In this document: piece after piece, positions 19,633 through 37,886 of the stretch | Layout of the letters: each line of letters opens with the position of its first letter | Numbering within the stretch: the first letter of the stretch is position 1 | IMG/VR virus record: IMGVR_UViG_2519899835_000006 | Direction: 5' to 3' (one strand) | Length of the DNA stretch: 39,249 bases | DNA from: a virus | Lineage: Duplodnaviria > Heunggongvirae > Uroviricota > Caudoviricetes | Notes under the pieces: model-generated | What the model was told of the DNA's origin: nothing | The model's input: the letters and a program-made list of their open reading frames with translations, nothing else | Databases searched by the model: none | Program-made: the position numbers and the translations under genes

Positions 19633-21045
19633 TTACCAACCGGAGGATGAGGGAACGTATATTTCTGTTTCTTCGCGGACCAATGCCGGGCAATGCATAC
19701 ACATCATCAGCGCATCAGCCAGGTTAGGAGATGGGATACCGAGCTTCTGCTTCATTTCGACCTTAGTCATAAGCTCCAGCTTCCCGTTGTTATTGAATTT
19801 GCGCTGAATCTGCGTAAGTTCTGCAAACAGCTTCTCCAGCATCTTCTCGCCTATCGCTTCTTTGTCGAAACTCAGCATGTCGTCGGGGTCTGCATACTCA
19901 CCGTAGACAACCGCCCGATATGTCAGATACAGCCTGTCAGCCAGCGCGTAATAGAATTGCGCTCTCTTATTGCGGAACACATCACCAATAGTGCGAACGT
20001 TGTCGCCCTGTACGACTTCATCAGCCCATGCTCCGGCCTGATACGGTGCATCTTCATCGAATGGCGATTCGCTGCCCTTGAACATCGTGGCGGTGATTTT
20101 CTTGCCGGAGAACGCTTCCGTTGTCTGTCTGCGTAGCCCAGCACCAACACCATCACCATCCCACAGGTAATGGTCAGCGCCGTCTTCAATCGCCAGCGAA
20201 GTAGCCCAGTCAGCACCCTCGTTGATGTCCATCAGCAGACCTTCGGCAATGCGCTTAACCACCGAACCGTGACGCGATGCGTAACCTTTAGCATCTGGCC
20301 CTGTATCTGACGGGTCATGTGCAGAAACAACCGCGCCTTTCGCTTTCCATCCGAGTTTCTTGTGCGCATCGGTTGCGGCTTCAAGCCATTCACGTTTGAT
20401 GATTGCCATATCACTTGCGCTTACTGGCTCACCAAGCCAGATGTGACGATACAGTGTCGGATTTCTGCGTTTGCACTCTTCCATCTCCAGACGGAGAACT
20501 TCAGGAAAGTGCGGATTGTCGGTGTAGTTCACCGTCAGCAGGCAAATATCATCTGGAGGATTTACGACGAATCGCTGATAGGTATCGTCGAGTATGTTTT
20601 TCGGGTTAAAGCTCACCCATATTTCGGAAAACGGCTTGCGGATGGTTGGTATCAGGATATCCCATGATTCCTTCGTTACCGCTTCCGCTTCTTCCACCCA
20701 GCAGATATCAATGCCTTCGAGCGATTTAATCTTCGTCGGGTTGTTTTTTATGCCGTAGAACATGAATTCAGCATTCGTTCCGAGATGACGAATCATTGAA
20801 CGCTGAATTTCAAACTCAGCCGAATACCCTTCCCGCTCTATGGTGTCTTCAAGCAACCGGATTACCGAATCGCTGATACTGTTTTGCAGTTCACGAGCAC
20901 AGAGGATGCGCACCGGCTGCCGACGCGCCGCTTCAACAAGCAGCCTTGCGATTGCCCATGACTTACCGCTACCTCGACCGCCTTTGGCGACTTTGTAGCG
21001 ATGCGCCTCAATGAACGGTTCAAAGATAGGATTAATCGAGGTCAT
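19633..21045 (-). CDS. terL: Terminase large subunit (TerL)
   Basis: 470 aa; Walker A KGGRGSGKS near N-terminus; ATPase plus nuclease domain size; same length as Sf6 gp2. Confidence 0.9.
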   Translation of the reverse strand: MTSINPIFEPFIEAHRYKVAKGGRGSGKSWAIARLLVEAARRQPVRILCARELQNSISDSVIRLLEDTIEREGYSAEFEIQRSMIRHLGTNAEFMFYGIKNNPTKIKSLEGIDICWVEEAEAVTKESWDILIPTIRKPFSEIWVSFNPKNILDDTYQRFVVNPPDDICLLTVNYTDNPHFPEVLRLEMEECKRRNPTLYRHIWLGEPVSASDMAIIKREWLEAATDAHKKLGWKAKGAVVSAHDPSDTGPDAKGYASRHGSVVKRIAEGLLMDINEGADWATSLAIEDGADHYLWDGDGVGAGLRRQTTEAFSGKKITATMFKGSESPFDEDAPYQAGAWADEVVQGDNVRTIGDVFRNKRAQFYYALADRLYLTYRAVVYGEYADPDDMLSFDKEAIGEKMLEKLFAELTQIQRKFNNNGKLELMTKVEMKQKLGIPSPNLADALMMCMHCPALVREETEIYVPSSSGW

Positions 21046-21482
21046 TTTCCGAATAGAGTGCTCATCGGTGATGTTTCAATCTGGATTGCGCCGCCGTCTT
21101 TGCCTGTTAGCTCGTGATCAACCTTGTCGCGCCATTTATCCTTCTGTCGATTCTTAAGCCAGAAGATGGCAGCTGTTGTATCAGGCGGGTAATACTTCTC
21201 AAGCGGAGTTTCGACAATTCTGTTTTCAATAACACGAATATCGATGTCTGGAGCCACGAAGCCCATAGCGCGTTGATAAAGACGATCACTAACTTCTGCA
21301 TCAGCGACGGCCTTACCCTTTTTTATGGACTCCGAAAACTTAGGATAATCAAGCTTCCACTTGTTAATAGTTGACTCACTGACTTCAAAGAAATCAGCAA
21401 GTTCTGCATCGGTGTAGCCCAGCAAGCACAGTTTGCGTGCCTGTTCGGCATACGCCTCTTGATACTTTGTTGGGCGCGCCAT
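21042..21482 (-). CDS. terS: Terminase small subunit (TerS)
   Basis: 146 aa immediately upstream of TerL with ATGA overlap; N-terminal HTH-like region. Confidence 0.8.
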   Translation of the reverse strand: MARPTKYQEAYAEQARKLCLLGYTDAELADFFEVSESTINKWKLDYPKFSESIKKGKAVADAEVSDRLYQRAMGFVAPDIDIRVIENRIVETPLEKYYPPDTTAAIFWLKNRQKDKWRDKVDHELTGKDGGAIQIETSPMSTLFGK

Positions 21483-21484
21483 GT

Positions 21485-21727
21485 TTATGCTCCTGTAGTG
21501 AACAGGTCTAACGCTTCCTTCGATTTACGCACCGCTTCGATAGTGCGGGTCGTGATATCTGAATTAGCGCCACCTGACTGGAAGTGAATTTTGAATAGCT
21601 CAAGCTTCAGCTCGTCAGTGCCAATGAATTGAAATGCTTCTTCTGCGGCTGCGTTCTGGTTCATGACCAGTTTGTAAATCTCTAACTGGAATTTCTGTTC
21701 TTCAGTCATGGGAATAATCTCTGCCAT
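21485..21727 (-). CDS. Hypothetical small protein upstream of TerS
   Basis: 80-aa ORF, tightly packed with terS. Confidence 0.45.
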   Translation of the reverse strand: MAEIIPMTEEQKFQLEIYKLVMNQNAAAEEAFQFIGTDELKLELFKIHFQSGGANSDITTRTIEAVRKSKEALDLFTTGA

Positions 21728-21837
21728 TATTGGCTCCGTTTATCCGTTAAAAGGGATATCAGTTAAGTTATCCCGTGTAGGGTATAAGCCATTATCAAAG
21801 CCACTCTGTAGGGAATGGCTTTTGTGATGGCAATAAA

Positions 21838-21859
21838 AAAGGCCGCCTGAGCGACCTTT
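21838..21859. terminator. Palindromic hairpin flanked by A-run and T-run (bidirectional terminator-like)
   Basis: AAAGGCCGC-CTGA-GCGACCTTT with AATAAAAAA upstream and CATTTTTC downstream. Confidence 0.45.
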
Positions 21860-21874
21860 CATTTTTCATCCGTT

Positions 21875-22093
21875 TTAATCATCTGGGTAATTAAGCGGCA
21901 TCCAGTGTGTAACCTTGCTTGCTCCTGAATCGATGAATTCCTTGGTTCTCTGCCAGTAAGAGCCCATACATGATAGTTTGAACACGTCACCAGTATCAGT
22001 AAGAGCTATAACCTCTTTAGACCACATCCCTTCTTTGCTTTCTGGTAGCCGGTGTTCAACATTGATCCATTGGTTTCCGTTATCATCCATCAC
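21875..22093 (-). CDS. Small DUF551-like protein
   Basis: 72 aa ending ...VTHWMPLNYPDD, sharing the C-terminal motif of the 213-aa protein at 38093-38734 (VTHWMPLPEPP). Confidence 0.55.
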   Translation of the reverse strand: MMDDNGNQWINVEHRLPESKEGMWSKEVIALTDTGDVFKLSCMGSYWQRTKEFIDSGASKVTHWMPLNYPDD

Positions 22094-22529
22094 AACCTCG
22101 TCTAGTTGTTCGTCATAGATTCAGTGGCTGGCGGTGACGATTCCGCTTTTCGGGAGCTACCCTAGCCACTGTTTTATTCTATCCGATGTCTTTCCATCAG
22201 TCCGCCACCACAAAGAATCTTTTTTGCCATAAGGCAGGAGGTTCATCTTTCAGTGGCTGCCAGTGTTATTTCCCCACTTACTGGCTTGGGTTGTTTCGCT
22301 GTACTGCCGTAACTGGTTGCCCAGAATAAATTCCGGTTTCATTATCAAGCCCACCCGTAGATAGGCTTTGTAATGAACTGGCTCTTATCTCAACGCAGCC
22401 CCTTACCGCGCGCCAGATGCTCAACTTCAAGCATCAGCAATGAGATGTTTAATCTGGATTCACTCCAGAAGTGATCACCACCCTGTCTACAGAGCCAGAT
22501 GTGAAGGATGATAAGTAAAATTATCGCTA

Positions 22530-22997
22530 TCATCGAAGGCATTGCGTCCTGATGTATTCCTGAAGCGTTCTCAGTGCTGTCTGGTCTCTGATGATTCCGT
22601 CCCGGATACCGAGAACGTTTCGTCCAGCAACTGGAGAGAGTTCGACGGTGGCATCATTGCCCATGCCGGAGGCGCTGGAGGTTTCGGCTGAGGATGGCAC
22701 AGGGCATTTTCCTTTGACGAGCACCCTGCCACCATTATCAAGCTTGCGCCGAAGAGCATCATTTTCAGCTTTCGCATCAGCTAACTCCTTCGTGTATTTA
22801 GCATCGAGTACATCAGCAGCACGCTGGCGTTGCTGCATGTCAGTAATGGTGGCGGTCGCCTGCTTCAGCTCACTGACTTTTTTATCTCGCTGCTCTTTGT
22901 AGGCGATGGCGTTATCACGGTAATGATTAACAGCCCATAACAGGCAGACGATGATGCAGATAACCAGAGCGGAGATAATCGCGGTGACTCTGCTCAT
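22530..22997 (-). CDS. Rz: Rz i-spanin
   Basis: 155 aa, N-terminal TM anchor, coiled-coil periplasmic domain, directly downstream of endolysin. Confidence 0.85.
22571..22777 (-). CDS. Rz1: Rz1 o-spanin lipoprotein, embedded in Rz in the +1 frame
   Basis: Embedded ORF with lipobox (MVAGC) and proline-rich PPAPPAW segment typical of Rz1. Confidence 0.75.
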
Positions 22998-23470
22998 ACC
23001 TCAATCTCTCTGACCGTTCCGCCAGCCTCTTTGAATTTTGCAATCAGGCTGTCAGCCTTATGCTCGAACTGACCATAACCAGCGCCCGGCAGTGAAGCCC
23101 AGATATTGCTGCAACGGTCGATAGCCTGACGGATATCACCGCGATCAATCATCGGTAAAGCGCCACGCTCTTTAATCTGCTGCAATGCCACAGCGTCCTG
23201 GCTTTTGGGAGAGAAATCTTTCAGGCCAAGCTGCTTACGATAGGCATCCCACCAACGGGAAAGAAGCTGGTAACGTCCGGCGGCTGTTGATTTGAGTTTG
23301 GGGTTTAGCGTGACAAGTTTGCGAGGGTGATCAGAGTAATCAGTGAATAGCTCTCCGCCTACAATGACGTCATAACCATGATTTCTGGTTTTCTGTCGTC
23401 CGTTATCAGTCCCCTCTGACCACGCCAGCATATCGAGGAACGCCTTACGTTGATTATTGATTTCCACCAT
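22994..23470 (-). CDS. R: Endolysin R (lambda-type lytic transglycosylase)
   Basis: 158 aa, [39 protein letters not shown]... essentially matches lambda R. Confidence 0.92.
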
Positions 23471-23777
23471 CTTCTACTCCGGCTTTTTTAGCAGCGACGC
23501 GTTTGATAAGCGAACCAATCGAGTCAGTGCCGATGTAGCCGATGAACACGCTCGTTATATAAGCGAGATTGCTACTTAGTCCGGCGAAGTCGAGAAGGTC
23601 ACGAATGAACCAGGCGATAATGGCGCACATCGTTGCGTCGATTACTGTTTTTGTAAACGCACCGCCATTATATCTGCCGCGAAGGTACGCCATTGCAAAC
23701 GCAAGGATTGCCCCGATGCCTTGTTCCTTTGCCGCGAGAATGGCGGCTAACAGGTCATGTTTTTCTGGCATCTTCAT
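23454..23777 (-). CDS. S: Holin S (lambda-type class I holin with dual-start MKM motif)
   Basis: 107 aa, [35 protein letters not shown]... essentially matches lambda S; overlaps R start. Confidence 0.92.
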
Positions 23778-24019
23778 GTCTTACCCCCAATAAGGGGATT
23801 TGCTCTATTTAATTAGGAATAAGGTCGATTACTGATAGAACAAATCCAGGCTACTGTGTTTAGTAATCAGATTTGTTCGTGACCGATATGCACGAGCAAA
23901 ACGGCATGAGGTTGTTAGCGCAGCCTCTTGCCACCCGCTTTCACGAAGGTCATGTTTAGAAGGCCGCAGCGTAACTATCACTGATGAATTCAGGATAGCC
24001 AGTGGCTACGGCTCAGTTA

Positions 24020-24095
24020 TGGTGCTGGTTAACGGACTTGAACCGCTACCCATTCGCTTACAAGGCGACTGCTCTACCATTGGAGCTAAACCAGC
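24020..24095 (-). tRNA. tRNA-Thr (anticodon UGU), CCA encoded
   Basis: Hand-folded cloverleaf: 7-bp acceptor stem GCTGGTT/AACCAGC, D-arm GCTC-CAATGGTA-GAGC, anticodon loop CTTGTAA, T-arm AGCGG-TTCAAGT-CCGTT, discriminator A + CCA. Confidence 0.65.
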
Positions 24096-24100
24096 ATGTT

Positions 24101-24175
24101 TGGCGGGACAGCGTGGACTCGAACCACGATAAGAAGGTTAACAGCCTTCCGTAATGACCTTTATACGACTGACCC
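24101..24175 (-). tRNA. tRNA-Asn (anticodon GUU), CCA encoded
   Basis: Hand-folded cloverleaf: anticodon stem GAAGG/CCTTC with loop CTGTTAA, T-arm CGTGG-TTCGAGT-CCACG, acceptor with one U-U mismatch, discriminator G + CCA. Confidence 0.7.
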
Positions 24176-24176
24176 A

Positions 24177-24220
24177 AATAAAAAAGCCACCGTTGCAACT
24201 TAAGAGTCACTAACGGCAGC
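24177..24220 (-). terminator. Hairpin plus U-tract between Q-like gene and the tRNAs (tR'-like terminator candidate)
   Basis: - strand GCUGCCGUU...AACGGUGGC 9-bp stem (two G-U) followed by UUUUUUAUUU. Confidence 0.45.
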
Positions 24221-24237
24221 TTACCTGCTAATTATGG

Positions 24238-24756
24238 CTAAATGGCTAATTGCATGTCAAGGCTTTTAACAGCAACATGCTTAACTTTCTCAACACGTTT
24301 ACGCATTTTGAAAGCATTTTGCATTGGCTGGTACAAAACAAATAACGACGCTTTCAGGATGTCGTCAATTTCGTTTCTACAGGTTGCCAGTGAAGGTTTT
24401 CTCCATCCCTCGCCACCACGTCCACACATCTTGCGTGGCTTTGCAGTCGCGTGATAGTAGGATGCAATTGCTCGCTTAGATGAACCATGAGCGTAGTAGC
24501 TGAGGAGGATGCCAAAGGCTTTCTTGTCAATGTACATGACGGAATCGACGACCTGAGAAATCAACATTCCATCATCATCATTACACATTGGCCTTGTCAT
24601 AATTCTTCCCGGCTCTACGCTCTCCATGAACTTCGCTATTACGCTGCTCATGCGCTTTTCCAGACGACCTGAATAAACCCATGCGCCCCACAGTTCAAGC
24701 CAGCCATTCAGCCACTCATGCTGTTCTTTGGTGAGGTTTAGTTCTCTTATGCCCAT
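24238..24756 (-). CDS. Q: Late-gene antiterminator Q-like protein (phage 82 / QuuD family)
   Basis: 172 aa with LELWGAW and [11 protein letters not shown] motifs resembling QuuD/82-type Q; located between nin region and lysis genes. Confidence 0.7.
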
Positions 24757-25418
24757 GCGCCTTCTCCCTGTACCTGAATCAATGTGAGGTTTCCGCAGAA
24801 CACTGCTCCGGTATCGATATACATTTGGTTGGCAAATTTAAGTGGTTTCACTGCTGGCGTATGACCAAAGATGAACGTGTCCGCGCCTTTGATTTCTTTC
24901 ACGATCCCGTCTTGTGAGTTGCTGATTCGTTCGCGGTTCCAGATTACCTGCTGATGATCAACTGGCTTTCCAAACTCGTATTCGTCACAAGGATAATCGG
25001 CGTGGCAGATGACATATTTTTTACCTTCGCTCACCAGTTCGATGATTAACGGAAGTTCATCTGCTTTATGAGCAAGAGCTTTAGCCAGAATTTCTTTGTC
25101 GTAATCGAGATTAAAGAACCAGCCACCGCCATTAAGCATCCAGTGATTGACGTTTCCGCGCTCTGATAAGCCATCAATCATCATTTGCTCATGGTTTCCA
25201 CGTACAGCTCGGAACCAGGGGAATGTGATTAATTCCAGACATTCGACGTTCTCTGTACCGCGATCGACCAAATCGCCAACCGAGATAAGCAGGTCTTTTT
25301 TGGTGTCGAATCCTATCGTCTCCAGTTTTTTCATCAGGTTCGTGTAGCATCCGTGCAGATCGCCAACTACCCAAATATTTCGGTATTTGCTGCCATCAAT
25401 TTTTTCGTAATAGCGCAT
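24747..25418 (-). CDS. ninI: Ser/Thr protein phosphatase NinI (lambda PPase); true start MRYYEKIDG inside the longer track ORF
   Basis: Metallophosphatase motifs GDLHGC, GDLVDRG, GNHE; sequence nearly identical to lambda phosphatase as recalled. Confidence 0.9.
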
Positions 25419-25602
25419 CTCTTTCACTCCATCCGCGATGAACCATGAGAACGTCGTTGACGATGGCGTGCATTTTCCCGTCTTTATCATCAACGTATTT
25501 TCTGACCGTACCGCGACTACATTTCAGTCTGCGTGCTACTTCTGTCTGGTTTCCGTATGCTTCAACGAGCATGTCTGGAATGGTTTTTACTGAGAACGTC
25601 AT
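25396..25602 (-). CDS. ninH: NinH
   Basis: 68 aa [37 protein letters not shown]... matches lambda NinH; HTH-like. Confidence 0.88.
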
Positions 25603-26210
25603 GCGGCCTCACTTCTGCTATTTCGCAGGTCTTTGAGTTTCTGCTGATACTCCGCCTTGATGGCCCTGCACTCTTCGACAGTCCAGCGATGGCGGTTATG
25701 GTTTGATTCGATTTCGTCTACTGCTTCCTGCCCGATGCGATTAATCAGTTCGACGCGATACGGAACGAGATTTCCGCTTTTGTGCTGGTTGCACACCACG
25801 CATTGCTTGTGAATATTGCGTTCATCAAATCGGAGTTGAGGTGCCGCAGCAGTTGTCCGGTAATGTCCGGCATCCCACTGAGCAGACGTGAGCGTTCCGC
25901 ACGAGATACATGGTAAGTCGCGGTCTCTTTCTCTGATGAAGGCGTTTACGGCTTGTTGGGCTTGTTTAATCCAGTAACTGCGGGGCTTTAAGGCGAGTTT
26001 TCGAATCTTAAGTTTATCTTTCTGTTTCTGCTCCTCTCGTCGTCGTTTCTTCTCTGCTGCTTTTTCCGCTTTTTCGCGTTCTTTGCTTCGTCGTTCGAGT
26101 GCTATCTTGGTTCCACACTCTGGAGAGCACCACCACTGATTAGCGAATGCAGGGTGAAACCATTCCCGACATTCATCGTTTTTACATCGTCTTCGCGCTG
26201 GTTTAGCCAT
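25599..26210 (-). CDS. ninG: NinG (Rap) recombination-associated protein
   Basis: 203 aa, Cys-rich N-terminus [18 protein letters not shown]..., lambda NinG-like. Confidence 0.88.
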
Positions 26211-26379
26211 CGTCTTCTTCCTCGTACATTGAGCTATTCGGATCGCTCATCAGTTCTGCGCAGCAGTGCTCACACACGTGAACTTCCAGCACATGCAGCT
26301 TCTGGCCGCAGTTAGCGCACGTTAAAGCCCGCTCGACGCTTTCTTTCTGGTATTGAAGGGATTGGGATGGGCTAAGCAT
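26203..26379 (-). CDS. ninF: NinF (58 aa; below ORF-track cutoff)
   Basis: Hand-translated [58 protein letters not shown]; CxxC...CxxC zinc-ribbon-like; lambda NinF-like. Confidence 0.75.
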
Positions 26380-26833
26380 TATTGGCGTCCTGCATCATGA
26401 GAAAGACAATCATGGCGGCGCGGAGTGGAGATTCACCGCAGAAGTAGTAGCCAGGAATATTTTCCCATTCCCAACAACCTTCCTCTAAATCACCTCCTGA
26501 CCATGCGCACCATTCTTTTTCCGCTGTCATCCACATAGTGCTGATTTTGCTTTCAGTGATTATTGGCCACGCATATTCAGGATTATTGCAAGGATTGAAG
26601 CAATTTCCGTTTGAAGAACGGAAGCCATTAATATCCCTTTTTTGCGTCTGCCAAATAGGACCTCTTTCGTCAGTGGGGATCTCAGAATCGAAGTCTGCTT
26701 CGTCATCAGGTATGAAGAAATGCTCCTCCATATCTAAAGCCTCACATACTCGTCTGTTAATTTCAAAATCACTTAACTGTGAATAATCCATTGTCATTTC
26801 CTCGCACGATGTCTTAGCCACCGGATATCCCAC
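26372..26833 (-). CDS. Hypothetical nin-region protein (NinX-like by position)
   Basis: 153-aa ORF between ninE and ninF, the position occupied by ninX in P22-like phages. Confidence 0.5.
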
Positions 26834-26970
26834 AGGTGAGCCGTGTAGTTGAAGGTTTTTACGTCAGATTCTTTTGGGATTGGCTTGCGTTTATTTCTGG
26901 AGCGTTTCGTTGGAAGGTATTTGCAGTTTTCGCAGATGATGTCGGTGAAACTTCGTCGCTGTCGTCTCAT
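26794..26970 (-). CDS. ninE: NinE; true start [10 protein letters not shown] inside the longer track ORF
   Basis: [58 protein letters not shown] matches lambda NinE. Confidence 0.85.
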
Positions 26971-27377
26971 TCGTACCTCCTGTCGGTAAATCTGACACCC
27001 TGACCAATAGCCCATGCTGTCGTGTACTCAATCAGACTTGCCATACGCTTCACGCTCATCTGCGCGCTGCTTTCGCGAATGTTGACGTATTCGCCTTCAA
27101 GGCCGGGCAAAACATCAGCTTCCTGTTTTGTTGCCACTGCATGACCGCTAATCAACAAAACCTTCCATTGTTCCGGTTTTAACCATTTGCCGCACCATTG
27201 AACCTGACGAGCGATATCCGCCAGCATCGCGTGAAATTTTGCGTTCTGGTCAAGGTTGCGCTTGTAGTCAGTAATGCGGATGGTGACTGGCTTGTCTTTA
27301 TCGAGTGGTGTTGCGAGGATGGCGTTGATTGCGGCTTGCTGTTGTTGCTTACTTCGGAGGAAGATTGTTTGCTTCAC
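26967..27377 (-). CDS. ninB: NinB recombination protein
   Basis: 136 aa with [27 protein letters not shown] aligning to lambda NinB. Confidence 0.85.
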
Positions 27378-27388
27378 TGAACACTCCT

Positions 27389-27580
27389 TTATTTTTTATG
27401 CCTGTAACCCCATTCTTCCAGCAACCTTGCGGCGTACCACCCAAGAAACAAAGGAAAGAACATTACAATGAGATATGCCACGCCACGGTCAATGTTCGAA
27501 ATTGACCAGATTACGATGTAACCAGTGCAGGACAGGAATATTACAAACCCCAAAAAGCTACTTCGTCGACTCATGCTCAC
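27389..27580 (-). CDS. Small membrane protein, unknown function
   Basis: 63 aa with two hydrophobic helices. Confidence 0.4.
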   Translation of the reverse strand: MSMSRRSSFLGFVIFLSCTGYIVIWSISNIDRGVAYLIVMFFPLFLGWYAARLLEEWGYRHKK

Positions 27581-27861
27581 TCCTTCACTTTGATTCCAGC
27601 GGCGCGGATGGATTCATCGATATCGTCACGGTCGTACACAGCAATAGCATCACTGACAAACCATACAGGCAACTCAATTTCAATAGCTGCTCGCGATGCC
27701 TGCCACGTTTGCCAGTGGCCTTGAACATCGTCCATCACGTATTGACCACCAATATCACCACTGCCAATTTCATGGTGATTTTCAGGGTAACGGATAAGGT
27801 CTGATGATTCGCCTCCACGTCGCAACCAACTTTCTTCAAACTGCTTTCTTGATTCGTCCAT
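27577..27861 (-). CDS. Hypothetical acidic protein
   Basis: 94-aa ORF in operon context between helicase and ninB (the ren/ninA position). Confidence 0.45.
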   Translation of the reverse strand: MDESRKQFEESWLRRGGESSDLIRYPENHHEIGSGDIGGQYVMDDVQGHWQTWQASRAAIEIELPVWFVSDAIAVYDRDDIDESIRAAGIKVKE

Positions 27862-27878
27862 CGATACTTACCCTCAGT

Positions 27879-28085
27879 TCAACTCACAAAACGCCACGCC
27901 ATTTTTGCTACGACAACAGGCATAACACCGATAATCACCCAGACAAATGCAGCGCCAAACAACGTATACCATGGGTCTTTACCGTCATTCACAAGACGAA
28001 TGTAGCTATGCAGAACAATAAAAAACGTCAGAAGAATCCATCCAACGCCAACGCATTTGAATGCGACGAGCATAAACTCAGCCAC
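27879..28085 (-). CDS. Small membrane protein, unknown function
   Basis: 68 aa with two hydrophobic helices. Confidence 0.4.
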   Translation of the reverse strand: MAEFMLVAFKCVGVGWILLTFFIVLHSYIRLVNDGKDPWYTLFGAAFVWVIIGVMPVVVAKMAWRFVS

Positions 28086-28157
28086 GATTTACTCTCCCCC
28101 AAATAAAAAGGCCTGCGATTACCAGCAGGCCTGTTATTAGCTCAGTGATGTAGATGG

Positions 28158-29534
28158 TCATACGTCAGCCCCTTGTGCATATCGTCTGCCACGCGCAGCA
28201 GGTGCATTTGATGCTGTGCAAATCTGTCTGGCTTCATCCTGGTCACATGCAACAAAGTGTCCGTTACAGAACCGCTGGTAAACCGTACCAAGCGAGCCAA
28301 AACGGTTTTTCGTCACAATGATTTCAGCAAATGGCGCGGCGCTACTGTTCTCGTCATATACCGCTTCCCGATAGAGCATGATGATTGAGTCTGCGTCCTG
28401 TTCAATGCTTCCTGAATCACGCAAATCTGCGTTTGTCGGGCGTTTGTTTGGTCGCTTCTCAACATCGCGCGAAAGCTGACTTAGGGAGATAACAGGCGTT
28501 TTCAGGTCTTTCGCCATCGCCTTAAGGCTTCCGGAGATGTGAGCAATTGCGAGGTCGTTGCGATCTGCTTTCGGCTTCTCAATCAGGCCAAGATAATCCG
28601 CCATGATGAGTGACAGGTTTGGATTTTCCTGTTTGTGCCGTTCTGCGATTGAGCGTATTTCTTCGACCGATAACCGCGAGGCATCGACTACCCATACATC
28701 CAAATCTGCAAGCTGACTCATGCCGTTAGCAACACGCGCCCAGCCTTCGTCATCCATCGATGCAGGATTTCGCAGCACGCTAACCGACATCCTCCCGGCG
28801 TTGGCAATGCTTCGCTCTGCAATCTGCAATGCGCTCATTTCCATTGAGAAAATCAACACTCCGCGCCGGACGTCAGAACCAGGAATAACGCGGCTTGCAA
28901 CGCCTTCGGCAATCTTCAGCGCCAGTTCGGTTTTCCCCATACCAGGACGAGCAGCGATTATCACCAGGTCTTCTGCGTTCATCCCTCCGGTGATGGCGTC
29001 AAGTTCTTCGATTCCGGTCTTCAGGGTATCTGACTCTTCTCCGTTCCTCAGACGCCTGTCAAGCGTGTCAGTGTAGTCAGTGATGATTTCCCCTAACCGT
29101 ACAGGTTTAACCTCGTCACGGGGCTTTCTGATAGCTGAAAGACGCTTCACAAGCTCATCCATCGCCTGACTCGATGCGTCGATGGTTCCGCTCTGAATTG
29201 GTTCACGCATTTCATCCATGATTTCCAGCACCAGACGGCGGTGATAGTTATCCGCGACCATTCCGGCATATCCCTTCAGGTTTGCGGCACTCGGGCAGTT
29301 TTTGCTGGTCATCAGGATTGACGTGAAATGCTCCTCTCCGCACGCCTCGGCAACCATCAGCGCGTCGATTAGGTTTCTGTTTCGCGCCTGCTTGCGGATA
29401 ACCTCGAAGGCTTTCCGGTAGAGCGGAATTGAAAACGCTTCCGGCTCCAGCGTTGCCAGAACGTCGCTGGCGGTTGGTGTTAATCCACCAATCAGCAGGC
29501 CACCGATAACGCTCGCTTCGATATCCTGTTTCAT
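28158..29534 (-). CDS. Replicative DNA helicase, DnaB-like (P22 gene 12-like)
   Basis: 458 aa; Walker A ARPGMGKT, DnaB-type motifs; downstream of O-like initiator. Confidence 0.9.
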
Positions 29535-30478
29535 GCAATCCCCCTGTCTGCAAACTTCCCTTCCCGAACTCCCGTTAACGAATCTTCCCTCAGCAGGTAA
29601 TCAAAATCGGCCGTCCAGCCAGTGTCGTTGTCTCCGAAGTAAAACGGCTTGGCCTGATGTACAAACGCCCTGACATACGCTCTGAAACCGTCCACGTTTG
29701 GCGTTTTCAGTTGCGGGATGATTTTCTTCAGGCGGCGTTTGCGTTTCTCGTTGACCGCAACAGCGTGTGGCAGTCTGTCACCGACTTCGGTGTTGTAGGC
29801 GTTCAGGAAGGATTCGTAGTCGATTCGTTCTGCCTTGCGACGTTCAGGTTTAACCTGCCCATCGCCGCCCCCATTGGGGGGTAGGGGGGTATTATTTATA
29901 TTCTTGTTAATACCTTCTTGTTCATGATGTGCGGTTGTTTGTGCGGCTTCATGTGCGCTTTCATGTGCGGCATGTACTCTGAAAGCCGCGCCATTGCTGG
30001 CTTCGTCATGTGCGGCATCATGTGCGGTTGTTTGTGCGGCTTCATGTGCGGGTGAATTGTCCATTTTTTGAGCGTATTCATGGTAATTTGTGATGGTGAT
30101 CACACGACCTTTTTGCTTCTCTCCATCAATGGAGATCATCCCCTCTTTCACAAAAACCTGAAGCATCCGCTCAACCTGATCACGGCTTGCTGGCTTGCCA
30201 TGTCTGTCGCATAACTGAAGACCTAAATCAGCTGCTGTCACAACCAGTTGACCGGGTTGCAGATGCCATTCATGACCTTTGAAATTCGCTTTGTATGGCT
30301 TTCTGGCGGCATTCAGGAGAAGGTTTTCCCACAGGGTGCGAAGATAAACATCTTTCGCCCATGACTGTTTCAGAATGCTCCGGTACAACGGAATGTAACC
30401 AGTTTTCTGGTTCTCCATCCTGTTGCTCCTGCGCTCGTGTGCGGCGCTGAAATCGTAGATTTTTGCTGTATTGCTCAT
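29531..30478 (-). CDS. Replication initiator, lambda O-like (N-terminal iteron-binding domain) with internal repeat region
   Basis: 315 aa; N-terminus [10 protein letters not shown] resembles lambda O MTNTAKILNF; contains the iteron repeats encoding [14 protein letters not shown] repeats; ATGA overlap with helicase. Confidence 0.8.
29927..30051. repeat. Origin-of-replication iterons: 8 copies of (CA)TGTGCGG spaced about 12 bp, in two clusters of four, inside the O-like gene
   Basis: Direct reading; motif copies at about 29927, 29940, 29950, 29961, 30007, 30019, 30033, 30043. Confidence 0.7.
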
Positions 30479-30480
30479 AA

Positions 30481-30753
30481 CTACCTGCCTTGACGAAAGA
30501 CATTAAGAACATCGTTAAACTGACTTACGGATATGTCTTCTTTGAGAAGCTTTTCCAGAAATGTGTTTGGAATGAACGTATATCCCTCCTCTTTTGGTAG
30601 AGACGGGAGCAACGCCCTCGCCTCAGCCTTCAGAAGCTCAGTTCTGGCAACTTTCACAAAAGAGATTTGAGTTCTTTCATCAATGGAACGAAGGAAGCGC
30701 AAACGCTTAGCTTCTTTGTGTGTATCAGGTGGATTAAAGCCTTTGTTTCGCAT
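30481..30753 (-). CDS. Hypothetical 90-aa protein between cII and O-like gene
   Basis: Portion of track ORF 30481..31026 downstream of the cII stop, from internal ATG; alternative frame upstream overlaps cII and is rejected. Confidence 0.4.
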   Translation of the reverse strand: MRNKGFNPPDTHKEAKRLRFLRSIDERTQISFVKVARTELLKAEARALLPSLPKEEGYTFIPNTFLEKLLKEDISVSQFNDVLNVFRQGR

Positions 30754-30775
30754 ATAATTACCTCGTTGGATGTTG

Positions 30776-31069
30776 TTAAAATTCCATTTGTATTTGATCA
30801 GAACGCTCGGTTGCCGCCGGGCGTTTTTTATTGGTGAGAATCGAAGCAACTTGTCGTGCCAATCGAGCCATGTCGTCGTCAACGACGCCCCATTCAAGAA
30901 CAGCAAGCAGCATTGAGAACTTTGGAATCCAGTCCCTCTTCCACCTGCTGATCTGCGACTTATCAACTCCCACAGCTTCCGCTGTCTTCTCAGTTCCAAG
31001 CATTGCGATTTTGTTAAGCAACGCACTCTCGATTCTTAGAGCCTCGTTGCGTTTGTTTGCACGAACCAT
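30776..31069 (-). CDS. cII: Transcriptional activator CII (lambda-type); true start MVRANKRNEAL
   Basis: 97 aa MVRANKRNEALRIESALLNKIAMLGTEKTAEAVGVDKSQISRWKRDWIPKFSMLLAVLEWGVVDDDMARLARQVA... essentially lambda CII. Confidence 0.92.
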   Translation of the reverse strand: MVRANKRNEALRIESALLNKIAMLGTEKTAEAVGVDKSQISRWKRDWIPKFSMLLAVLEWGVVDDDMARLARQVASILTNKKRPAATERSDQIQMEF

Positions 31070-31120
31070 ATGTAAGTATTTCCTTAACAAATAAGAAGTT
31101 ATGCGCATCAACTTATGCGC

Positions 31121-31171
31121 GTTGTATTCCCGCATTTCGGCGGGAATGAGGACCATGACTGTTAAAGAGCA
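31121..31171 (-). promoter_or_regulatory. nutR-like site (boxA GCTCTTTAACAG and boxB hairpin TCCCGCCGAAATGCGGGA on - strand)
   Basis: Same boxA/boxB sequences as the nutL candidate at 32259-32298; located between cro and cII. Confidence 0.55.
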
Positions 31172-31177
31172 ATTTGC

Positions 31178-31363
31178 TTATGCCGCTTTGCGGTAAGCGC
31201 TTTCTTGATACTTCAGGGCGCCAGCTGTAACGACTTCCAGTCGATAGGCGTCTTTCTCTGGGATGACTTCCTTCCACTGAGAGACTGCTGCGTCGCTAAT
31301 GCCTAACGCTTTAGCTACAGCACGCTGGGTTCCGAAGTGGTCGATAACATCTTTCTTGTACAT
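31178..31363 (-). CDS. cro: Cro repressor (P22-type)
   Basis: 61 aa MYKKDVIDHFGTQRAVAKALGISDAAVSQWKEVIPEKDAYRLEVVTAGALKYQE... matches P22 Cro. Confidence 0.92.
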   Translation of the reverse strand: MYKKDVIDHFGTQRAVAKALGISDAAVSQWKEVIPEKDAYRLEVVTAGALKYQESAYRKAA

Positions 31364-31377
31364 AGACTCGCTCCGAA

Positions 31378-31444
31378 ATTAAAGAACACTTAAATTATCC
31401 ACTAAAGGAATCTTAAGTCAAGTTTATTTAAGATGTCTTAACTA
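31378..31444. promoter_or_regulatory. OR operator region with three P22-type operators and divergent PR/PRM
   Basis: ATTAAAGAACACTTAAAT (31378-31395), ACTAAAGGAATCTTAAGT (31401-31418), ATTTAAGATGTCTTAACT (31427-31444), each an imperfect 18-bp palindrome of the P22 operator type. Confidence 0.75.
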
Positions 31445-32094
31445 TGAAAACTCAATTGATGGGAGAGCGCATTCGCGCTCGGAGAAAAGAACTCAAGATC
31501 AGGCAGGCCGCACTTGGAAAGATGGTCGGCGTGTCTAATGTTGCCATATCTCAGTGGGAACGCTCTGAGACAGAGCCAAATGGAGAGAATCTTCTCGCCC
31601 TGGCTAATGCGTTGAAGTGTTCCCCTGACTATCTGATGAAAGGAGAGGAAAGTCTTTCAAACATTGCCTATCACAGTAGGCATGATCCAAGAGGGTCATA
31701 CCCTCTGATTAGCTGGGTGAGCGCAGGATGCTGGATGGAAGCTGTAGAACCATATCATAAGCGTGCAATAGATAACTGGTACGATACAACCGTAGACTGT
31801 TCAGAAGATTCGTTTTGGTTGGACGTGAAGGGAGACTCAATGACGGCTCCGGCCGGTCTCAGTATCCCTGAAGGAATGATAATACTCGTCGATCCTGAAG
31901 TAGAGCCGCGTAACGGGAAACTGGTAGTTGCAAAGCTCGAAGGAGAAAACGAGGCAACTTTCAAGAAGTTAGTTATTGATGCAGGCAGGAAGTTTCTAAA
32001 ACCACTTAACCCACAATATCCGATGATCGAGATCAACGGAAACTGCAAAATCATCGGCGTAGTTGTCGATGCAAAACTAGCAAACCTTCCATAA
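31444..32094 (+). CDS. c2: C2 repressor (P22-type, LexA-like autocleaving repressor)
   Basis: 216 aa; near-identical to P22 C2 (MKTQLMGERIRARRKELKIRQAALGKMVGVSNVAISQWERSETEPNGENLLAL...); C-terminal S24 peptidase-like domain. Confidence 0.95.
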   Translation: MKTQLMGERIRARRKELKIRQAALGKMVGVSNVAISQWERSETEPNGENLLALANALKCSPDYLMKGEESLSNIAYHSRHDPRGSYPLISWVSAGCWMEAVEPYHKRAIDNWYDTTVDCSEDSFWLDVKGDSMTAPAGLSIPEGMIILVDPEVEPRNGKLVVAKLEGENEATFKKLVIDAGRKFLKPLNPQYPMIEINGNCKIIGVVVDAKLANLP

Positions 32095-32119
32095 GGGGGC
32101 ATTCGCCCCTTTTTTATTT
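32095..32119 (+). terminator. Rho-independent terminator after c2
   Basis: GGGGC-ATTC-GCCCC hairpin followed by TTTTTTATTT immediately after the c2 stop. Confidence 0.65.
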
Positions 32120-32139
32120 CCTTTAAAAATCAAAGCCAA

Positions 32140-32215
32140 ACTTAAGTTACGAAAGAAAATTTAAGTTTTCTTCAAAAATACTCTTGACCATTAATTAAAG
32201 AGATCTTAAATTTAA
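32140..32215 (+). promoter_or_regulatory. OL/PL region: P22-type operator ATTAAAGAGATCTTAAAT (32194-32211) overlapping a TTGACC -35 (32184-32189)
   Basis: Operator half-sites matching those at OR; TTGACC then 17 bp then TAAATT; oriented toward N-like gene. Confidence 0.55.
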
Positions 32216-32258
32216 GCCATCAGCAGGACGCTGGTAGCCAAACGGAACAGATTGGCAG

Positions 32259-32298
32259 GCTCTTTAACATTGATGGGATTGTCCCGCCGAAATGCGGG
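32259..32298 (+). promoter_or_regulatory. nutL-like site (boxA GCTCTTTAACA, boxB CCCGCCGAAATGCGGG)
   Basis: boxA-like sequence followed 13 nt later by a short GC stem-loop; same elements found on the - strand downstream of cro. Confidence 0.55.
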
Positions 32299-32612
32299 AA
32301 CCAAAGAGTAGTTGGCTTTGGGGTGACGTGAAGTGCAGCTGCACGACGGCAACCGGAAGATAAGCACCCGGCGCGTCACCGCCAAAGTCAATTCCATAGG
32401 CGTTATGCAGCCGCCACCATATTCAAGAAAGCTGCACAAGAGGTAGGAGGATTTATGTGAATACTTACATTCAATTGAGAGATTAATTAAATAGAACTGA
32501 TCGAGCAGAGTCCATGAAGGCTCATAAATGCTCTTCCATCCCCGTCTAATTGGCGGGGAAGGAAACCACTTTGTAATAAAAAAATTCCAAAGTTGTTTCA
32601 TCGGAGGTCAAC

Positions 32613-32918
32613 ATGACAGTAGTCATTACATATCTGGCTGACGATAACGCCAGAAATCGCCGCAGAGCACGCAGACAGGCTCAACGTGAACAGGAAATGC
32701 AAGAGCAGCGACTGGCGCGAAAAATTGCGCTAAAGCTCTCTGGTTGCGTCAGAGCAGATAAAGCAGCATCACTCGGAAGCCTTCGCTGTAAGAAAGCAGA
32801 TGAAGTCGAGCTTAAACAGAACTGTATTTACTACCGCAAGCCACGCAGTGAAATGGGTGTGACCTGTTCAGGCCGCCAGAAGCAACGCGGAAAATCAATT
32901 CCAGCTTATTACGATTGA
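32613..32918 (+). CDS. N: N-like transcription antiterminator
   Basis: 101 aa; N-terminal arginine-rich motif DNARNRRRARRQAQREQ; C-terminus YRKPRSEMGVTCSGRQKQRGKSIP resembles lambda N C-terminus; first gene after PL/nutL. Confidence 0.7.
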   Translation: MTVVITYLADDNARNRRRARRQAQREQEMQEQRLARKIALKLSGCVRADKAASLGSLRCKKADEVELKQNCIYYRKPRSEMGVTCSGRQKQRGKSIPAYYD

Positions 32919-32926
32919 GGTGAGAT

Positions 32927-33376
32927 ATGGAAGAACAAGCAAACAAGATTCTCGTAGAACTACTGCAAAAAGCCAGCAATGGAATAGACGCGGCTGTTTC
33001 ATTCAGCCAAGCGCAGATTCCTGATGTTGTTCATCAGTTGCTGCTATGGAATATGGTTGACAGTCTGATTAAAACATTAATAGCCATTCTAACAATCCCA
33101 CTGGTTTTCTGGTTTATGAAGAAGCAGTGCCAAAGAGTTGAGACAGGTAAAATCGGTGATGAAGGATACTCATGGGAGAGGGGAAATCCCAAATACAGGC
33201 CGACAATGGTTTGGGATAGCAAAGGAGATATTAACCTTCTTATCATGCCATTGGTTGGAGTTTTGACTCTGTGGGGGATTTTTATTATTGGTGTAGTAAC
33301 CAATATGACTTGGTTAAAAATTTGGCTGGCCCCAAAGCTTTACCTTATCGAATATGCAGCATCATTGGTTAAGTAA
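32927..33376 (+). CDS. Membrane protein (SieB-like superinfection-exclusion candidate by position)
   Basis: 149 aa with two predicted TM helices; located just downstream of N as sieB is in lambda/P22. Confidence 0.45.
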   Translation: MEEQANKILVELLQKASNGIDAAVSFSQAQIPDVVHQLLLWNMVDSLIKTLIAILTIPLVFWFMKKQCQRVETGKIGDEGYSWERGNPKYRPTMVWDSKGDINLLIMPLVGVLTLWGIFIIGVVTNMTWLKIWLAPKLYLIEYAASLVK

Positions 33377-33564
33377 TTTCAGGCCGCATAGTCGGCCTTT
33401 ATTTTTGGCATAAACAACAGAATAAACACTGCACTGTGTATTCATTCCAACGAGTGAATACACGGAGCAATGTCGCTCGTAACTAAACAGGAGCCGACTT
33501 GTTCTGATTATTGGAAATCTTCTTTGCCCTCCAGTGTGAGGGCAATTTTTTTGATGGAGGATAT

Positions 33565-34533: not shown

Positions 34534-34557
34534 TAAAACCAACATAAGGAACCACCC

Positions 34558-34689
34558 ATGATTTACGCAATCGCGGGAGGCGCTCGCATGGGTGCCTTCC
34601 AATTAAATGAATCTTTACTTGAACGAATCACCCGTAAATTACGTGACGGATGGAAAAGAGTTGAGGTCTTATTATGCGCAATGAAATAG
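34558..34689 (+). CDS. cIII: CIII (FtsH inhibitor) homolog (43 aa; below track cutoff)
   Basis: Hand-translated MIYAIAGGARMGAFQLNESLLERITRKLRDGWKRVEVLLCAMK; core ESLLERITRKLRDGWKR matches lambda CIII. Confidence 0.85.
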   Translation: MIYAIAGGARMGAFQLNESLLERITRKLRDGWKRVEVLLCAMK

Positions 34690-34826
34690 CCATCAATCAC
34701 CAGATGCTTCGTGCTGCACAGAACAAAGCAGTAATAGCCAGATTTATTGGTGATTCAAAAATGTGGCTTGAAGCAAATAAAGCGATGAAATCAGCTATCA
34801 ACCTTCCATGGTATCGCAGGAAATGA
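34674..34826 (+). CDS. kil: Kil-like small protein (50 aa; below track cutoff)
   Basis: Hand-translated MRNEIAINHQMLRAAQNKAVIARFIGDSKMWLEANKAMKSAINLPWYRRK; FIGD.KM motif and position after cIII as lambda kil. Confidence 0.5.
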   Translation: MRNEIAINHQMLRAAQNKAVIARFIGDSKMWLEANKAMKSAINLPWYRRK

Positions 34827-34993
34827 GCTTTACAGATAACTGGTCAGACGAAGAATTCATTCGTCAGATGAAAGAATTATTCGGTAACGAAGGAGATATT
34901 CATGTCACTTGCAACCACCGTGAAGGAGAGCAAGTTACAGAGACGCATGTACACGCAGCAGGCGTTAATGTATCGCCAGAAGGGAGATCGTGA
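34823..34993 (+). CDS. Small hypothetical protein (56 aa)
   Basis: ATG overlapping the kil-like stop (ATGA); MSFTDNWSDEEFIRQMKELFGNEGDIHVTCNHREGEQ... Confidence 0.3.
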   Translation: MSFTDNWSDEEFIRQMKELFGNEGDIHVTCNHREGEQVTETHVHAAGVNVSPEGRS

Positions 34994-35082
34994 AGGTGTT
35001 CGCGTCTTTTTAAATGCGGCAAAGACTGAAGTATTAAATCAGCGTTATTTCCTTGGGCCATGCCCATTCTGAGAACAAACAT

Positions 35083-36071: not shown

Positions 36072-36094
36072 TTTAGAAAAATAAGGATTTAATT

Positions 36095-36391
36095 ATGCCA
36101 GCGCCTCTGTATGGTGCGGATGACCCGCGCCGCTGTTCCGGCAATTCCGTATCGGAGGTGCTGGATAAATTCAGGAAAAACTACGACCTGATAATGTCGC
36201 TACCGCAGGAAACGAAAGAGGAAAAGGAATTTCGCCATTGTATATGGCTTGCAGAGAAAGAAGAACGCGAGCGAATTTACCAGACATCAATCCGACCATT
36301 CCGCAAAGCCACATACACCCACTTCCCTGAATATATCGACCCGCGCCTGCGTAATTACCGCTCACGCTATGGCGCTATCAGTAATGACTGA
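36095..36391 (+). CDS. Hypothetical protein (possible Abc2-like anti-RecBCD by position; unverified)
   Basis: 98-aa ORF immediately downstream of erf/ssb. Confidence 0.4.
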   Translation: MPAPLYGADDPRRCSGNSVSEVLDKFRKNYDLIMSLPQETKEEKEFRHCIWLAEKEERERIYQTSIRPFRKATYTHFPEYIDPRLRNYRSRYGAISND

Positions 36392-36401
36392 GGAATTAAC
36401 A

Positions 36402-36692: not shown

Positions 36693-36852
36693 GAGGACTT
36701 GCATACAATCCCGGCATTCTTCCGGCAGAAATGATTATTCGCCAGCGCGTAAAGCCAATGCCATCGAGAGAGGAATTGCTTAAGAGAAATTCTTTTCCAT
36801 CAGTGAATCAAAACAAATATCTGAATGCGATGTGGCGTAAAGGAGGCAACCA

Positions 36853-37885: not shown

Positions 37886-37886
37886 T

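Follow-up and report, generated by a model that had tools for sequence, protein, structure and literature searches.

A tRNA-Asn(GUU)/tRNA-Thr(UGU) pair at the head of the late operon of a P22-like Escherichia coli prophage: probable spare decoders resistant to Toprim nucleases

The effector protein in P2-lambda interference is P2 Old, which severs the anticodon arm of the host tRNA-ThrU(UGU) (Govande et al., NAR 2025, PMC12445682). It cuts after C28 and C40 in a paired CNG motif, and Lys(UUU), Asn(GUU), and Val(UAC) tRNAs are slower substrates than ThrU (PMC12445682). Asn is absent from the list of tRNAs depleted more than twofold by Old that is given in a preprint (bioRxiv 10.64898/2026.07.10.737580). 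The tRNA-Thr of phage 21, in which the anticodon stem is shortened and the base pairs close to either cut site are altered (tested substitution C28U/G42A), protected cells from P2-OLD, resisted cleavage in vitro, and restored ACA decoding in vivo (PMC12445682). Similarly, phages HK97, HK542, and Bas34, which are OLD-sensitive, regain plating when the Thr(UGU) tRNA of HK446 is supplied, and a viral Thr(UGU) tRNA alone rescued neither lambda nor recB-lacking cells (bioRxiv 10.64898/2026.07.10.737580). In the rescue experiments, the tRNAs were expressed from plasmids and rescue was partial. Overexpression of the host tRNA-ThrU did not rescue from Old whereas the phage Thr version did, and therefore the sequence differences between the two tRNAs matter. 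Old can reportedly be triggered by a phage protein, Gp33 of HK75 being sufficient for this (bioRxiv 10.64898/2026.07.10.737580). In the same preprint, HK446 was described as a single-tRNA phage that also encodes an inhibitor protein, Oad2; according to the authors, the tRNA possibly serves another purpose. When we inspected the HK446 genome, we found both an Asn and a Thr gene, and it seems that the Asn gene was overlooked in the 2026 study.

AriB, the nuclease of PARIS, cuts host tRNAs at U36AAUC|A41, with Lys(UUU) as primary target, followed by Thr(UGU) and then by Asn(GUU) (PMC11464382, PMC12409363). Substitution of U39 alone abolishes AriB cleavage of tRNA-Lys, and neutralization of PARIS requires resistant Lys(UUU), Thr(UGU), and Asn(GUU) tRNAs together (PMC12409363). 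A cassette consisting of an Asn(GUU) and a Thr(UGU) gene is already known, since it is annotated in the records of Sf6, phage 21, and SfI and is also present in HK446. Work from 2025-26 has characterized its Thr member as a replacement tRNA that withstands nuclease cleavage.

Here, we analyzed a stretch of viral DNA of 39,249 nucleotides (the window), which is a P22-like prophage of E. coli that combines, as a mosaic, segments of Sf6, HK620, and related phages; positions 20000-38553 share 100% identity with a prophage in E. coli NCCP15648. The features of the tRNA locus and two context genes are summarized in Table 1. We consider it probable that the tRNA pair consists of functional genes, which lead the Q-dependent late transcript and supply spare decoders resistant to Toprim nucleases.

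Table 1. Features of the tRNA cassette, of its late-operon surroundings, and of two context genes (window coordinates)
Feature	Position	Strand	Characteristics and evidence
Holin/antiholin, lambda S family, first late gene	23454..23777	-	Pfam Phage_holin_3_1, E = 5e-30; Sf6 annotation
Conserved structured 242-nt leader between tRNAs and holin start	23778..24019	-	Alignment and folding
tRNA-Thr(UGU)	24020..24095	-	76 nt, CCA encoded; ARAGORN and Rfam (61.5 bits)
5-nt spacer AAACA between tRNA-Asn and tRNA-Thr	24096..24100	-	Sequence
tRNA-Asn(GUU)	24101..24175	-	75 nt, CCA encoded; ARAGORN and Rfam (55.3 bits)
Late leader RNA, 50 nt, qut region and tR' intrinsic terminator (hairpin plus UUUUUUAUUU)	24176..24225	-	Folding; Sf6 annotation tR'/qut
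PR' late promoter, TTGACA-18 nt-CATAAT, overlaps Q 3' end	24231..24260	-	Promoter scan, 11/12 matches
Q-like late antiterminator gene, phage 21 type	24238..24756	-	172 aa; Pfam Phage_antitermQ, E = 1.6e-25
Gp33 homologue (context)	34823..34993	+	tblastn vs HK75 Gp33: 56/56 aa, 96.4%, E = 9.5e-35
Abc2 anti-RecBCD protein (context)	36095..36391	+	PHROG 656 'abc2 anti-RecBCD', E = 1.2e-56

ARAGORN called tRNA-Thr(tgt) and tRNA-Asn(gtt) and no other tRNA in the window. Both matched the Rfam family RF00005 with scores far above its gathering score of 29 bits (E-values of 4e-11 for tRNA-Thr and 2e-9 for tRNA-Asn), and these matches are not due to chance. A preliminary description of this DNA, which had been made from the letters alone and had proposed such a predictor run, placed a Thr-UGU and an Asn-GUU tRNA at 24020-24175, and the coordinates of both programs agree with it. 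The 5-nt gap and the encoded CCA ends that it reported can be seen in the sequence, and the late-transcript strand to which it assigned the pair corresponds to the minus strand of the window, which the tRNAs share with the Q-like gene and the holin.

The anticodon loops of the two tRNAs (CUUGUAA in Thr, CUGUUAA in Asn) comprise seven nucleotides with U33 and a purine at position 37. The T-arms (GGUUCAAGUCC and GGUUCGAGUCC) follow the T-loop pattern GGUUCRANUCC, and both D-loops contain the GG that corresponds to G18G19. The identity elements of E. coli ThrRS are G1-C72, C2-G71, G35, and U36, and those of AsnRS are G34, U35, U36, and G73. All of them were found in the Thr and Asn sequences, respectively, including G1-C72 and C2-G71 of tRNA-Thr, which were invariant among six phage Thr tRNAs, and the G73 discriminator of tRNA-Asn. 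On the other hand, the U8-A14 tertiary pair, which is otherwise conserved, and complete pairing of the stems were not consistently present. In tRNA-Thr, position 14 is a C where the consensus has an A, and a G27·A43 mismatch tops an anticodon arm that continues with U28-A42, C29-G41, G30-C40, and C31-G39. tRNA-Asn has a U4·U69 mismatch in the acceptor stem, a U13·U22 mismatch, and a 4-nt variable loop. G27·A43 and U4·U69 are the G-A and U-U mismatches that had been noticed before.

When we compared the two tRNAs with the corresponding host genes, we observed identities of 72% for Thr (thrU) and 63% for Asn (asnT). The anticodon stem reads ACUGA/UCAGU in host thrU and GUCGC/GCGAA in the window Thr gene; for Asn, the host stem is GCGGA/UCCGU and that of the window GAAGG/CCUUC. 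At the site of the CNG motif, host thrU carries CUG/CAG and the window Thr UCG/CGA, while host asn carries CGG/CCG and the window Asn AAG/CUU. tRNA-Thr of the window thus shows the sequence traits of Old resistance, namely a UGU anticodon, an altered CNG motif at 28-30/40-42, and a stem shortened at 27-43. The G27·A43 mismatch, which had been flagged as a possible defect, is therefore the source of the shortened stem that has been linked to Old resistance. For tRNA-Asn, the missing CNG motif predicts resistance to Old but does not demonstrate selection for it, since we estimate that chance alone leaves about 15 of 16 random stems without this motif; loss of CNG in phage Asn tRNAs was thus rejected as evidence for selection. 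The Asn tRNA of Klebsiella phage Mulock retains a paired CNG (CAG/CUG) and that of P1 retains the AriB-preferred UAAUCA, and judged from these motifs both should be sensitive to the respective nuclease. The AriB motif is UAAUCA in host thrU and UAAUCC in host asn, but UAAGCG in the window Thr and UAACCU in the window Asn. From these substitutions, both window tRNAs are predicted to resist AriB. However, the window lacks a tRNA-Lys, so that the full anti-PARIS tRNA set is incomplete. Since tRNA-Lys(UUU) is the primary target of AriB, the pair alone should not defeat B185 PARIS.

The most serious alternative is pure codon supplementation, according to which the tRNAs speed up translation of phage genes rich in ACA and AAC/AAU and have no link to defense. 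We consider this explanation rather unlikely, but several data speak for it. ACA accounts for 31% of the Thr codons of the window (16.5 per 1000) and for 28% of those of the late genes, compared with 19% (12.3 per 1000) in a host sample of 38 E. coli K-12 genes (1.65-fold for window vs host sample, Fisher p = 1e-7), and thrU is a single-copy gene in the host. The same ACA bias was reported for SfI (2013), and in the coat gene of phage L 24 of the 25 Asn codons are AAC according to the phage L paper. However, more detailed inspection of codon usage indicated that all eight four-fold codon families are enriched in A-ending codons by 1.41- to 1.78-fold. The ACA enrichment is real but does not exceed this general bias, so that it appears compositional and not ACA-specific, and it leaves the choice of a Thr(UGU) tRNA unexplained. 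For Asn codons, the difference between window and host sample (49 vs 45 per 1000) was not significant (p = 0.12), and four identical Asn tRNA genes are present in the sampled host region alone. The SfI authors did not find a bias for Asn either and called the significance of the Asn tRNA unclear. Finally, supplementation does not account for the failure of overexpressed host ThrU against Old under conditions in which the phage Thr tRNA works.

Of the earlier suggestion that the tRNAs serve over-used codons, the enrichment of ACA thus holds, but this enrichment is a general one and that of the Asn codons lacks significance. A second suggestion, supply of codons for AT-rich morons, appears unlikely. 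The acyltransferase moron of the prophage (1387-3297) is AT-rich (GC 34%) and contains many ACA and AAU codons, but this serotype-conversion gene is probably expressed in the lysogen, where tR' should keep the tRNAs largely off. We regard codon supplementation as a weakly supported secondary benefit at most. Topping-up of a scarce host tRNA (single-copy thrU) in a phage biased toward A-ending codons is compatible, as such a secondary benefit, with the supply of nuclease-resistant decoders.

To return to the late operon, the order of elements on the sense strand is Q, PR', tR', Asn, Thr, and holin. The Q-like gene shares 98.7% DNA identity with gene 59 of Sf6, which is annotated as similar to phage 21 Q, and the position of PR' corresponds to an Sf6 feature annotated as near-identical to the late promoter of phage 21. 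Folding of the late leader yielded -20.2 kcal/mol (z = -4.3), and none of 200 shuffled sequences was as stable. tRNA-Asn begins at the base directly following the U-run of tR'. This arrangement agrees with the phage 21 record, in which an annotated 50-nt 'aRNA' ends one base before tRNA-Asn, and with the Sf6 RefSeq record, in which PR', qut, and tR' are followed by tRNA-Asn and tRNA-Thr annotated as resembling phage 21. All constituents of a lambdoid late control region were found: a Q-family gene, a strong sigma-70 promoter at the 3' end of Q, a short leader ended by an intrinsic terminator, and lysis genes. A consensus-only promoter scan of positions 23400-24900 gave no strong site other than PR', and we therefore ruled out an independent tRNA promoter at this level of analysis. 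Because no promoter of its own was found, expression of the cassette should depend on Q-mediated readthrough of tR', as judged from the architecture of the locus and from lambda-type late operons.

When lambda, HK75, HK446, and the window were aligned, a replaceable slot became apparent, which extends from the tR' U-run on the left to AACTGAGCCGTAGCC on the right. This slot contains unrelated fillers of about 160 nt in lambda and about 200 nt in HK75 but the 156-nt tRNA pair in the window, phage 21, Sf6, and HK446. Downstream of it, the 242-nt leader is near-invariant in the four aligned sequences and folds with -84 kcal/mol (z = -5.4). The tRNA pair is located behind a 21-type tR' in the window and behind a lambda-type tR' in HK446, and it therefore behaves as a portable module without promoter or terminator of its own. 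Such a position might also suggest a role in RNA processing, in which RNase P would cut the lysis mRNA off from the Q-loading leader and thereby set the 5' end and the stability of this mRNA, decoding being a by-product. The facts that the cassette exactly abuts tR', precedes the conserved structured leader, and has neither promoter nor terminator are in line with this idea. However, lambda and HK75 have the same leader and holin with unrelated slot fillers, and the relatives have conserved both anticodons and identity elements, for which punctuation alone would have no use. We therefore consider punctuation of the late transcript to be very unlikely.

The prophage encodes, in addition to the Gp33 homologue and Abc2, the Erf protein, and a tblastn search of the prophage did not reveal a homologue of the OLD inhibitor Oad2 of HK446. 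From this gene content (Gp33 homologue, Abc2, no detectable Oad2), we infer that the prophage would need a tRNA of this kind. What speaks against a benefit is that a tRNA expressed late may arrive only after early genes have triggered Old.

tRNA genes are integration sites for many temperate phages, and the pair might thus compensate for a host tRNA gene that is broken by prophage integration. This possibility, which has been raised for HK446 (bioRxiv 10.64898/2026.07.10.737580), deserves hardly any credence for the window. The junction between integrase and acyltransferase (window 1150-1395, 100% identical) adjoins a tRNA-Arg gene in related prophages and not a Thr(UGU) or Asn gene, and the position of the IntS-type integrase next to tRNA-Arg led us to rule out compensation. 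The record names tRNA-Arg only, and our assignment of the integration site to argW is based on reading of the yfdC/intS neighborhood. Moreover, the tRNA pair is separated from the integrase by 23 kb and lies behind tR', so that it should be largely silent in the lysogen, and the two genes share only 72% and 63% identity with their host counterparts.

To define the distribution of the cassette, we searched phage records and bacterial genomes. A 166-nt region covering the cassette was identical with phage 21 at 166 of 166 nucleotides, and the identity of the phage 21 tRNA-Thr was established from GenBank AJ237660. About 42 phage records, among them those of Sf6, SfI, HK446, S135, SPN9CC, and Oslo, contain the same region with 98-100% identity. 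In HK446, both tRNAs are identical to those of the window, and the spacer (AAATA instead of AAACA) is the only difference in the cassette; the tRNA-Asn sequence is shared without change by phage L as well as by phage 21 and HK446. Among 5426 complete E. coli genomes, BLAST detected the cassette in 361 (coverage of at least 80%). A total of 1043 of these genomes gave any match, and the host thrU and asn genes were absent from the matches. This absence, together with the low identity to thrU and asnT, rules out recent capture from the host.

tRNA-Thr is a member of a family of phage Thr(UGU) tRNAs, its identity being 88% with N4, 83% with P1, and 82-89% with SSU5-like phage-plasmids, and tRNA-Asn groups in another phage lineage with Klebsiella phage Mulock, a Mosigvirus, an Erwinia jumbo phage, and Klebsiella phage KP13-16. 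The order Asn then Thr recurs in P1, N4, SSU5-like phage-plasmids, and Mulock. In phage L, the second tRNA is degenerate: it was not called by ARAGORN, scored 42 bits with Rfam, and has a shortened anticodon loop.

Covariation was quantified separately for the two lineages. In the Asn lineage, 94.3% of the cells were paired and double changes occurred in 9 of the 21 pairs; the corresponding values for the Thr lineage were 97.6% and 6 of 21. Slid controls gave 37-48% paired cells in the Asn lineage and 17-49% over both lineages, and in either lineage none of 500 shuffles reached a covariation score as high as the observed one. The unpaired cells were confined to U4·U69, position 13-22, and G27·A43. 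At 4-69, a U·G pair is present in the three other members of the Asn lineage, and G27·A43 occurs in three of the six Thr genes. Mulock shares both odd mismatches and shows compensatory changes at other pairs. These data support the conclusion that the cloverleaves of both tRNAs have been maintained by compensatory substitution among the relatives. The departures from the tRNA consensus in Thr and Asn are tolerated deviations, as indicated by the compensatory changes in the relatives and by the activity of the identical Thr tRNA in vivo, and the doubts about function that the preliminary description had attached to the mismatches were not confirmed. The idea that the genes are decaying relics carried along in a mosaic junction, which could draw on the non-canonical U4·U69, U13·U22, G27·A43, and C14 and on the truly degenerate second tRNA of phage L, is highly improbable and was ruled out, as both Rfam scores are well over threshold, phages that are otherwise mosaic carry identical sequences, relatives with the same mismatches show compensatory changes, and the identical Thr tRNA restored ACA decoding in vivo. 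A charged mature form has effectively been shown for Thr. Taken together, these data indicate, on sequence grounds, that the pair consists of real, functional phage tRNA genes, whose charging and native expression are predicted.

The supply of nuclease-resistant spare decoders could then proceed as follows. Transcription from PR' would normally halt at tR', ending one base before tRNA-Asn, and the Q-dependent late transcript would open with the 156 nt of the tRNA pair. The CCA-bearing tRNAs would be freed by RNase P and 3' trimming enzymes of the host, and host ThrRS and AsnRS would charge them, as suggested by the presence of the identity elements. The likeliest benefit would be a stock of spare decoders, the anticodon stems of which are unlike those of the host at the cut sites of Toprim anticodon-arm nucleases. 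Late proteins with ACA and AAY codons might thus remain translatable after loss of host tRNA-ThrU and, to a lesser extent, of host tRNA-Asn. Plasmid-based experiments with the identical sequence have shown this replacement mechanism for Thr; we infer it for the Asn tRNA and for the native context of the late transcript.

More tentatively, Asn(GUU)-Thr(UGU) may represent a minimal promoterless counter-defense module that is spreading among temperate (lambdoid, P22-like, P1, SSU5-like) and some virulent (N4) enterobacterial phages; although conceivable, this broader reading appears to us somewhat doubtful. The module would spread because one widespread class of Toprim nucleases (Old, PARIS-like) hits both host tRNAs. 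If this is true, Asn would be needed beside Thr for the late phase of a prophage that bears Gp33 and lacks Oad2 in nuclease-carrying hosts. If the Asn tRNA is resistant to cleavage as well, the pair would constitute a two-tRNA counter-defense unit present in about 7% of the complete E. coli genomes, and this would help to explain which lambdoid prophages are inducible in P2 old or PARIS hosts. The locus as such is a clean natural example of a temperate phage that deploys nuclease-resistant spare tRNAs.

The locus can be compared with several known systems. As had been pointed out from the sequence, the slot is that of Stx-type phages: ileZ-argN-argO of the Stx phage 933W lies between Q/PR' and stx2/S, with Q, PR', and terminators on one side and late genes on the other. 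However, the codons served by the 933W cluster are rare ones for Ile and Arg, its record annotates extra terminators and a putative promoter for the tRNAs alone, and stx and other genes lie between its tRNAs and the holin. The trnA(Asn)-trnT(Thr) pair of P1 and the arrays of N4 and SSU5-like phage-plasmids carry the same two anticodons in identical order, next to each other or almost so, and their Thr genes are 82-89% identical to that of the window. In contrast, their Asn genes are of a different lineage (59-65% identity to the window Asn). Moreover, the P1 pair is located downstream of C1-controlled ban promoters and not behind a Q-dependent terminator, and P1 Thr, unlike the window Thr, retains a full 5-bp stem and CUG/CAG. 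Compared with the tRNA-Lys/Thr/Asn variants of T5 that act against AriB (PMC11464382, PMC12409363), the window pair supplies two of the three specificities and has no tRNA-Lys(UUU). Both window tRNAs carry substitutions on either side of the 40|41 cut, at positions 39 and 41.

The Old-resistant Thr(UGU) tRNAs described so far (tRNA-Thr6 and tRNA-Thr21, PMC12445682; those of T4, Bas32, Bas33, and HK446, bioRxiv 10.64898/2026.07.10.737580) have the UGU anticodon, the 27-43 mismatch, and the loss of C28 in common with tRNA-Thr of the window, and the window sequence is that of two of the tested tRNAs (phage 21, HK446). The tested tRNAs were plasmid-borne, whereas the window gene is in its native position behind tR', in a prophage with a Gp33 homologue and no detectable Oad2. 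The closest relative is the cassette of phage 21, Sf6, SfI, and HK446, which occupies the same position after tR' in the same order (100% identity to phage 21, 98-99% to Sf6 and SfI) and from which the window cassette does not differ in substance. The surrounding mosaic is a different one, since in the window a 21-type Q occurs together with virion genes of the HK620/Sf6 type and with another tailspike and acyltransferase.

When we compared the tRNA pair of the window with that of other phages, we found that tRNA-Asn(GUU) is followed by tRNA-Thr(UGU), either adjoining or one tRNA apart, in P1, N4, SSU5-like plasmids and Mulock, which belong to unrelated phage families. Because the pair recurs in these families even though its Asn genes fall into two distinct sequence lineages, the data point to a selection common to these phages that acts specifically on the Asn(GUU)-Thr(UGU) pair. 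Both genes are also present in HK446 (L008, 706-861), the RefSeq record of which annotates neither of them. The tRNA-Asn of Salmonella phage L is identical in sequence to that of the window. The second tRNA gene of this phage is annotated as tRNA-Leu(TAA), but it scored only 42 bits in Rfam, its anticodon loop is shortened and ARAGORN did not call it. It appears to derive from the Thr gene by degeneration and not to be a functioning Leu tRNA.

In HK75, the tRNA slot (the replaceable segment between the tR' U-run and the conserved holin leader) is occupied by some 200 nt unrelated to the tRNA pair, and CUS-3 and other phages with 86-87% coverage of the same query probably carry a similar filler. 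The minimum-energy fold of the HK75 segment has a 7-bp stem resembling an acceptor stem; its D-arm reads AGCUC...GAGCU, its T-arm (GCCGGUUCGAUUCCGGC) is canonical, and two additional hairpins take the position of the anticodon arm. ARAGORN called no tRNA in this segment and its sole Rfam match was a sub-threshold hit to tmRNA (20 bits). The segment may represent a tRNA-like RNA that is degenerate or unusual.

The leader separating tRNA-Thr from the holin gene is nearly invariant in the alignment of the window, lambda, HK75 and HK446. Its predicted folding energy (-84 kcal/mol, z = -5.4) is far better than that of shuffled controls. This leader is known for the dual-start control of S, the holin gene.

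Features of the window and of the comparison sequences
Feature	Sequence	Position	Strand	Remarks
Acyltransferase, 636 aa	window	1387-3297	+	AT3 and SGNH domains; integrase on one side, tailspike on the other
Ant-like antirepressor gene	window	5448-6326	-	Bro-N and P22_AR_C domains
sar antisense RNA	window	6328-6393	+	63.7 bits
int-alpA RNA match	window	22110-22172	-	Rfam, 42 bits vs gathering score 35.8
Leader, 242 nt	window	23778-24019	-	tRNA-Thr upstream, holin downstream
Gp33 homologue, 56-aa ORF	window	34823-34993	+	96% identity to HK75 Gp33
Erf	window	35083-35688		near Gp33 homologue
Abc2	window	36095-36391		near Gp33 homologue
tRNA site	phage L (L003)	886-957		tRNA-Asn/second tRNA gene
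Slot segment	HK75 (L005)	about 821-1000	-	equivalent to window 24020-24175
Asn/Thr tRNA locus	P1 (L011)	1425-1578
Asn/Thr tRNA locus	N4 (L012)	437-686
Asn/Thr tRNA locus	Mulock (L004)	801-1038
Asn/Thr tRNA loci	SSU5-like plasmids (L013, L014)

HK75 Gp33, a homologue of which is encoded in the window, has been reported to be sufficient to trigger the toxicity of the tRNA-cutting defence nuclease P2 Old (bioRxiv 10.64898/2026.07.10.737580). No homologue of the Old inhibitor Oad2 (HK446 gp27) was detected in the window.

The sar RNA directly adjoins the Ant-like antirepressor gene and therefore, the prophage carries a P22-type immI region. The int-alpA RNA match has the lysis genes on one side and the small terminase region on the other, where an RNA whose name refers to integrase/AlpA loci would not be expected.

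The acyltransferase gene is AT-rich (GC 34%) and probably represents an O-antigen acetylase moron. ACA accounts for 19 of the 29 Thr codons in this gene and AAU for 27 of the 37 Asn codons. The gene product is roughly double the size of Sf6 Oac.
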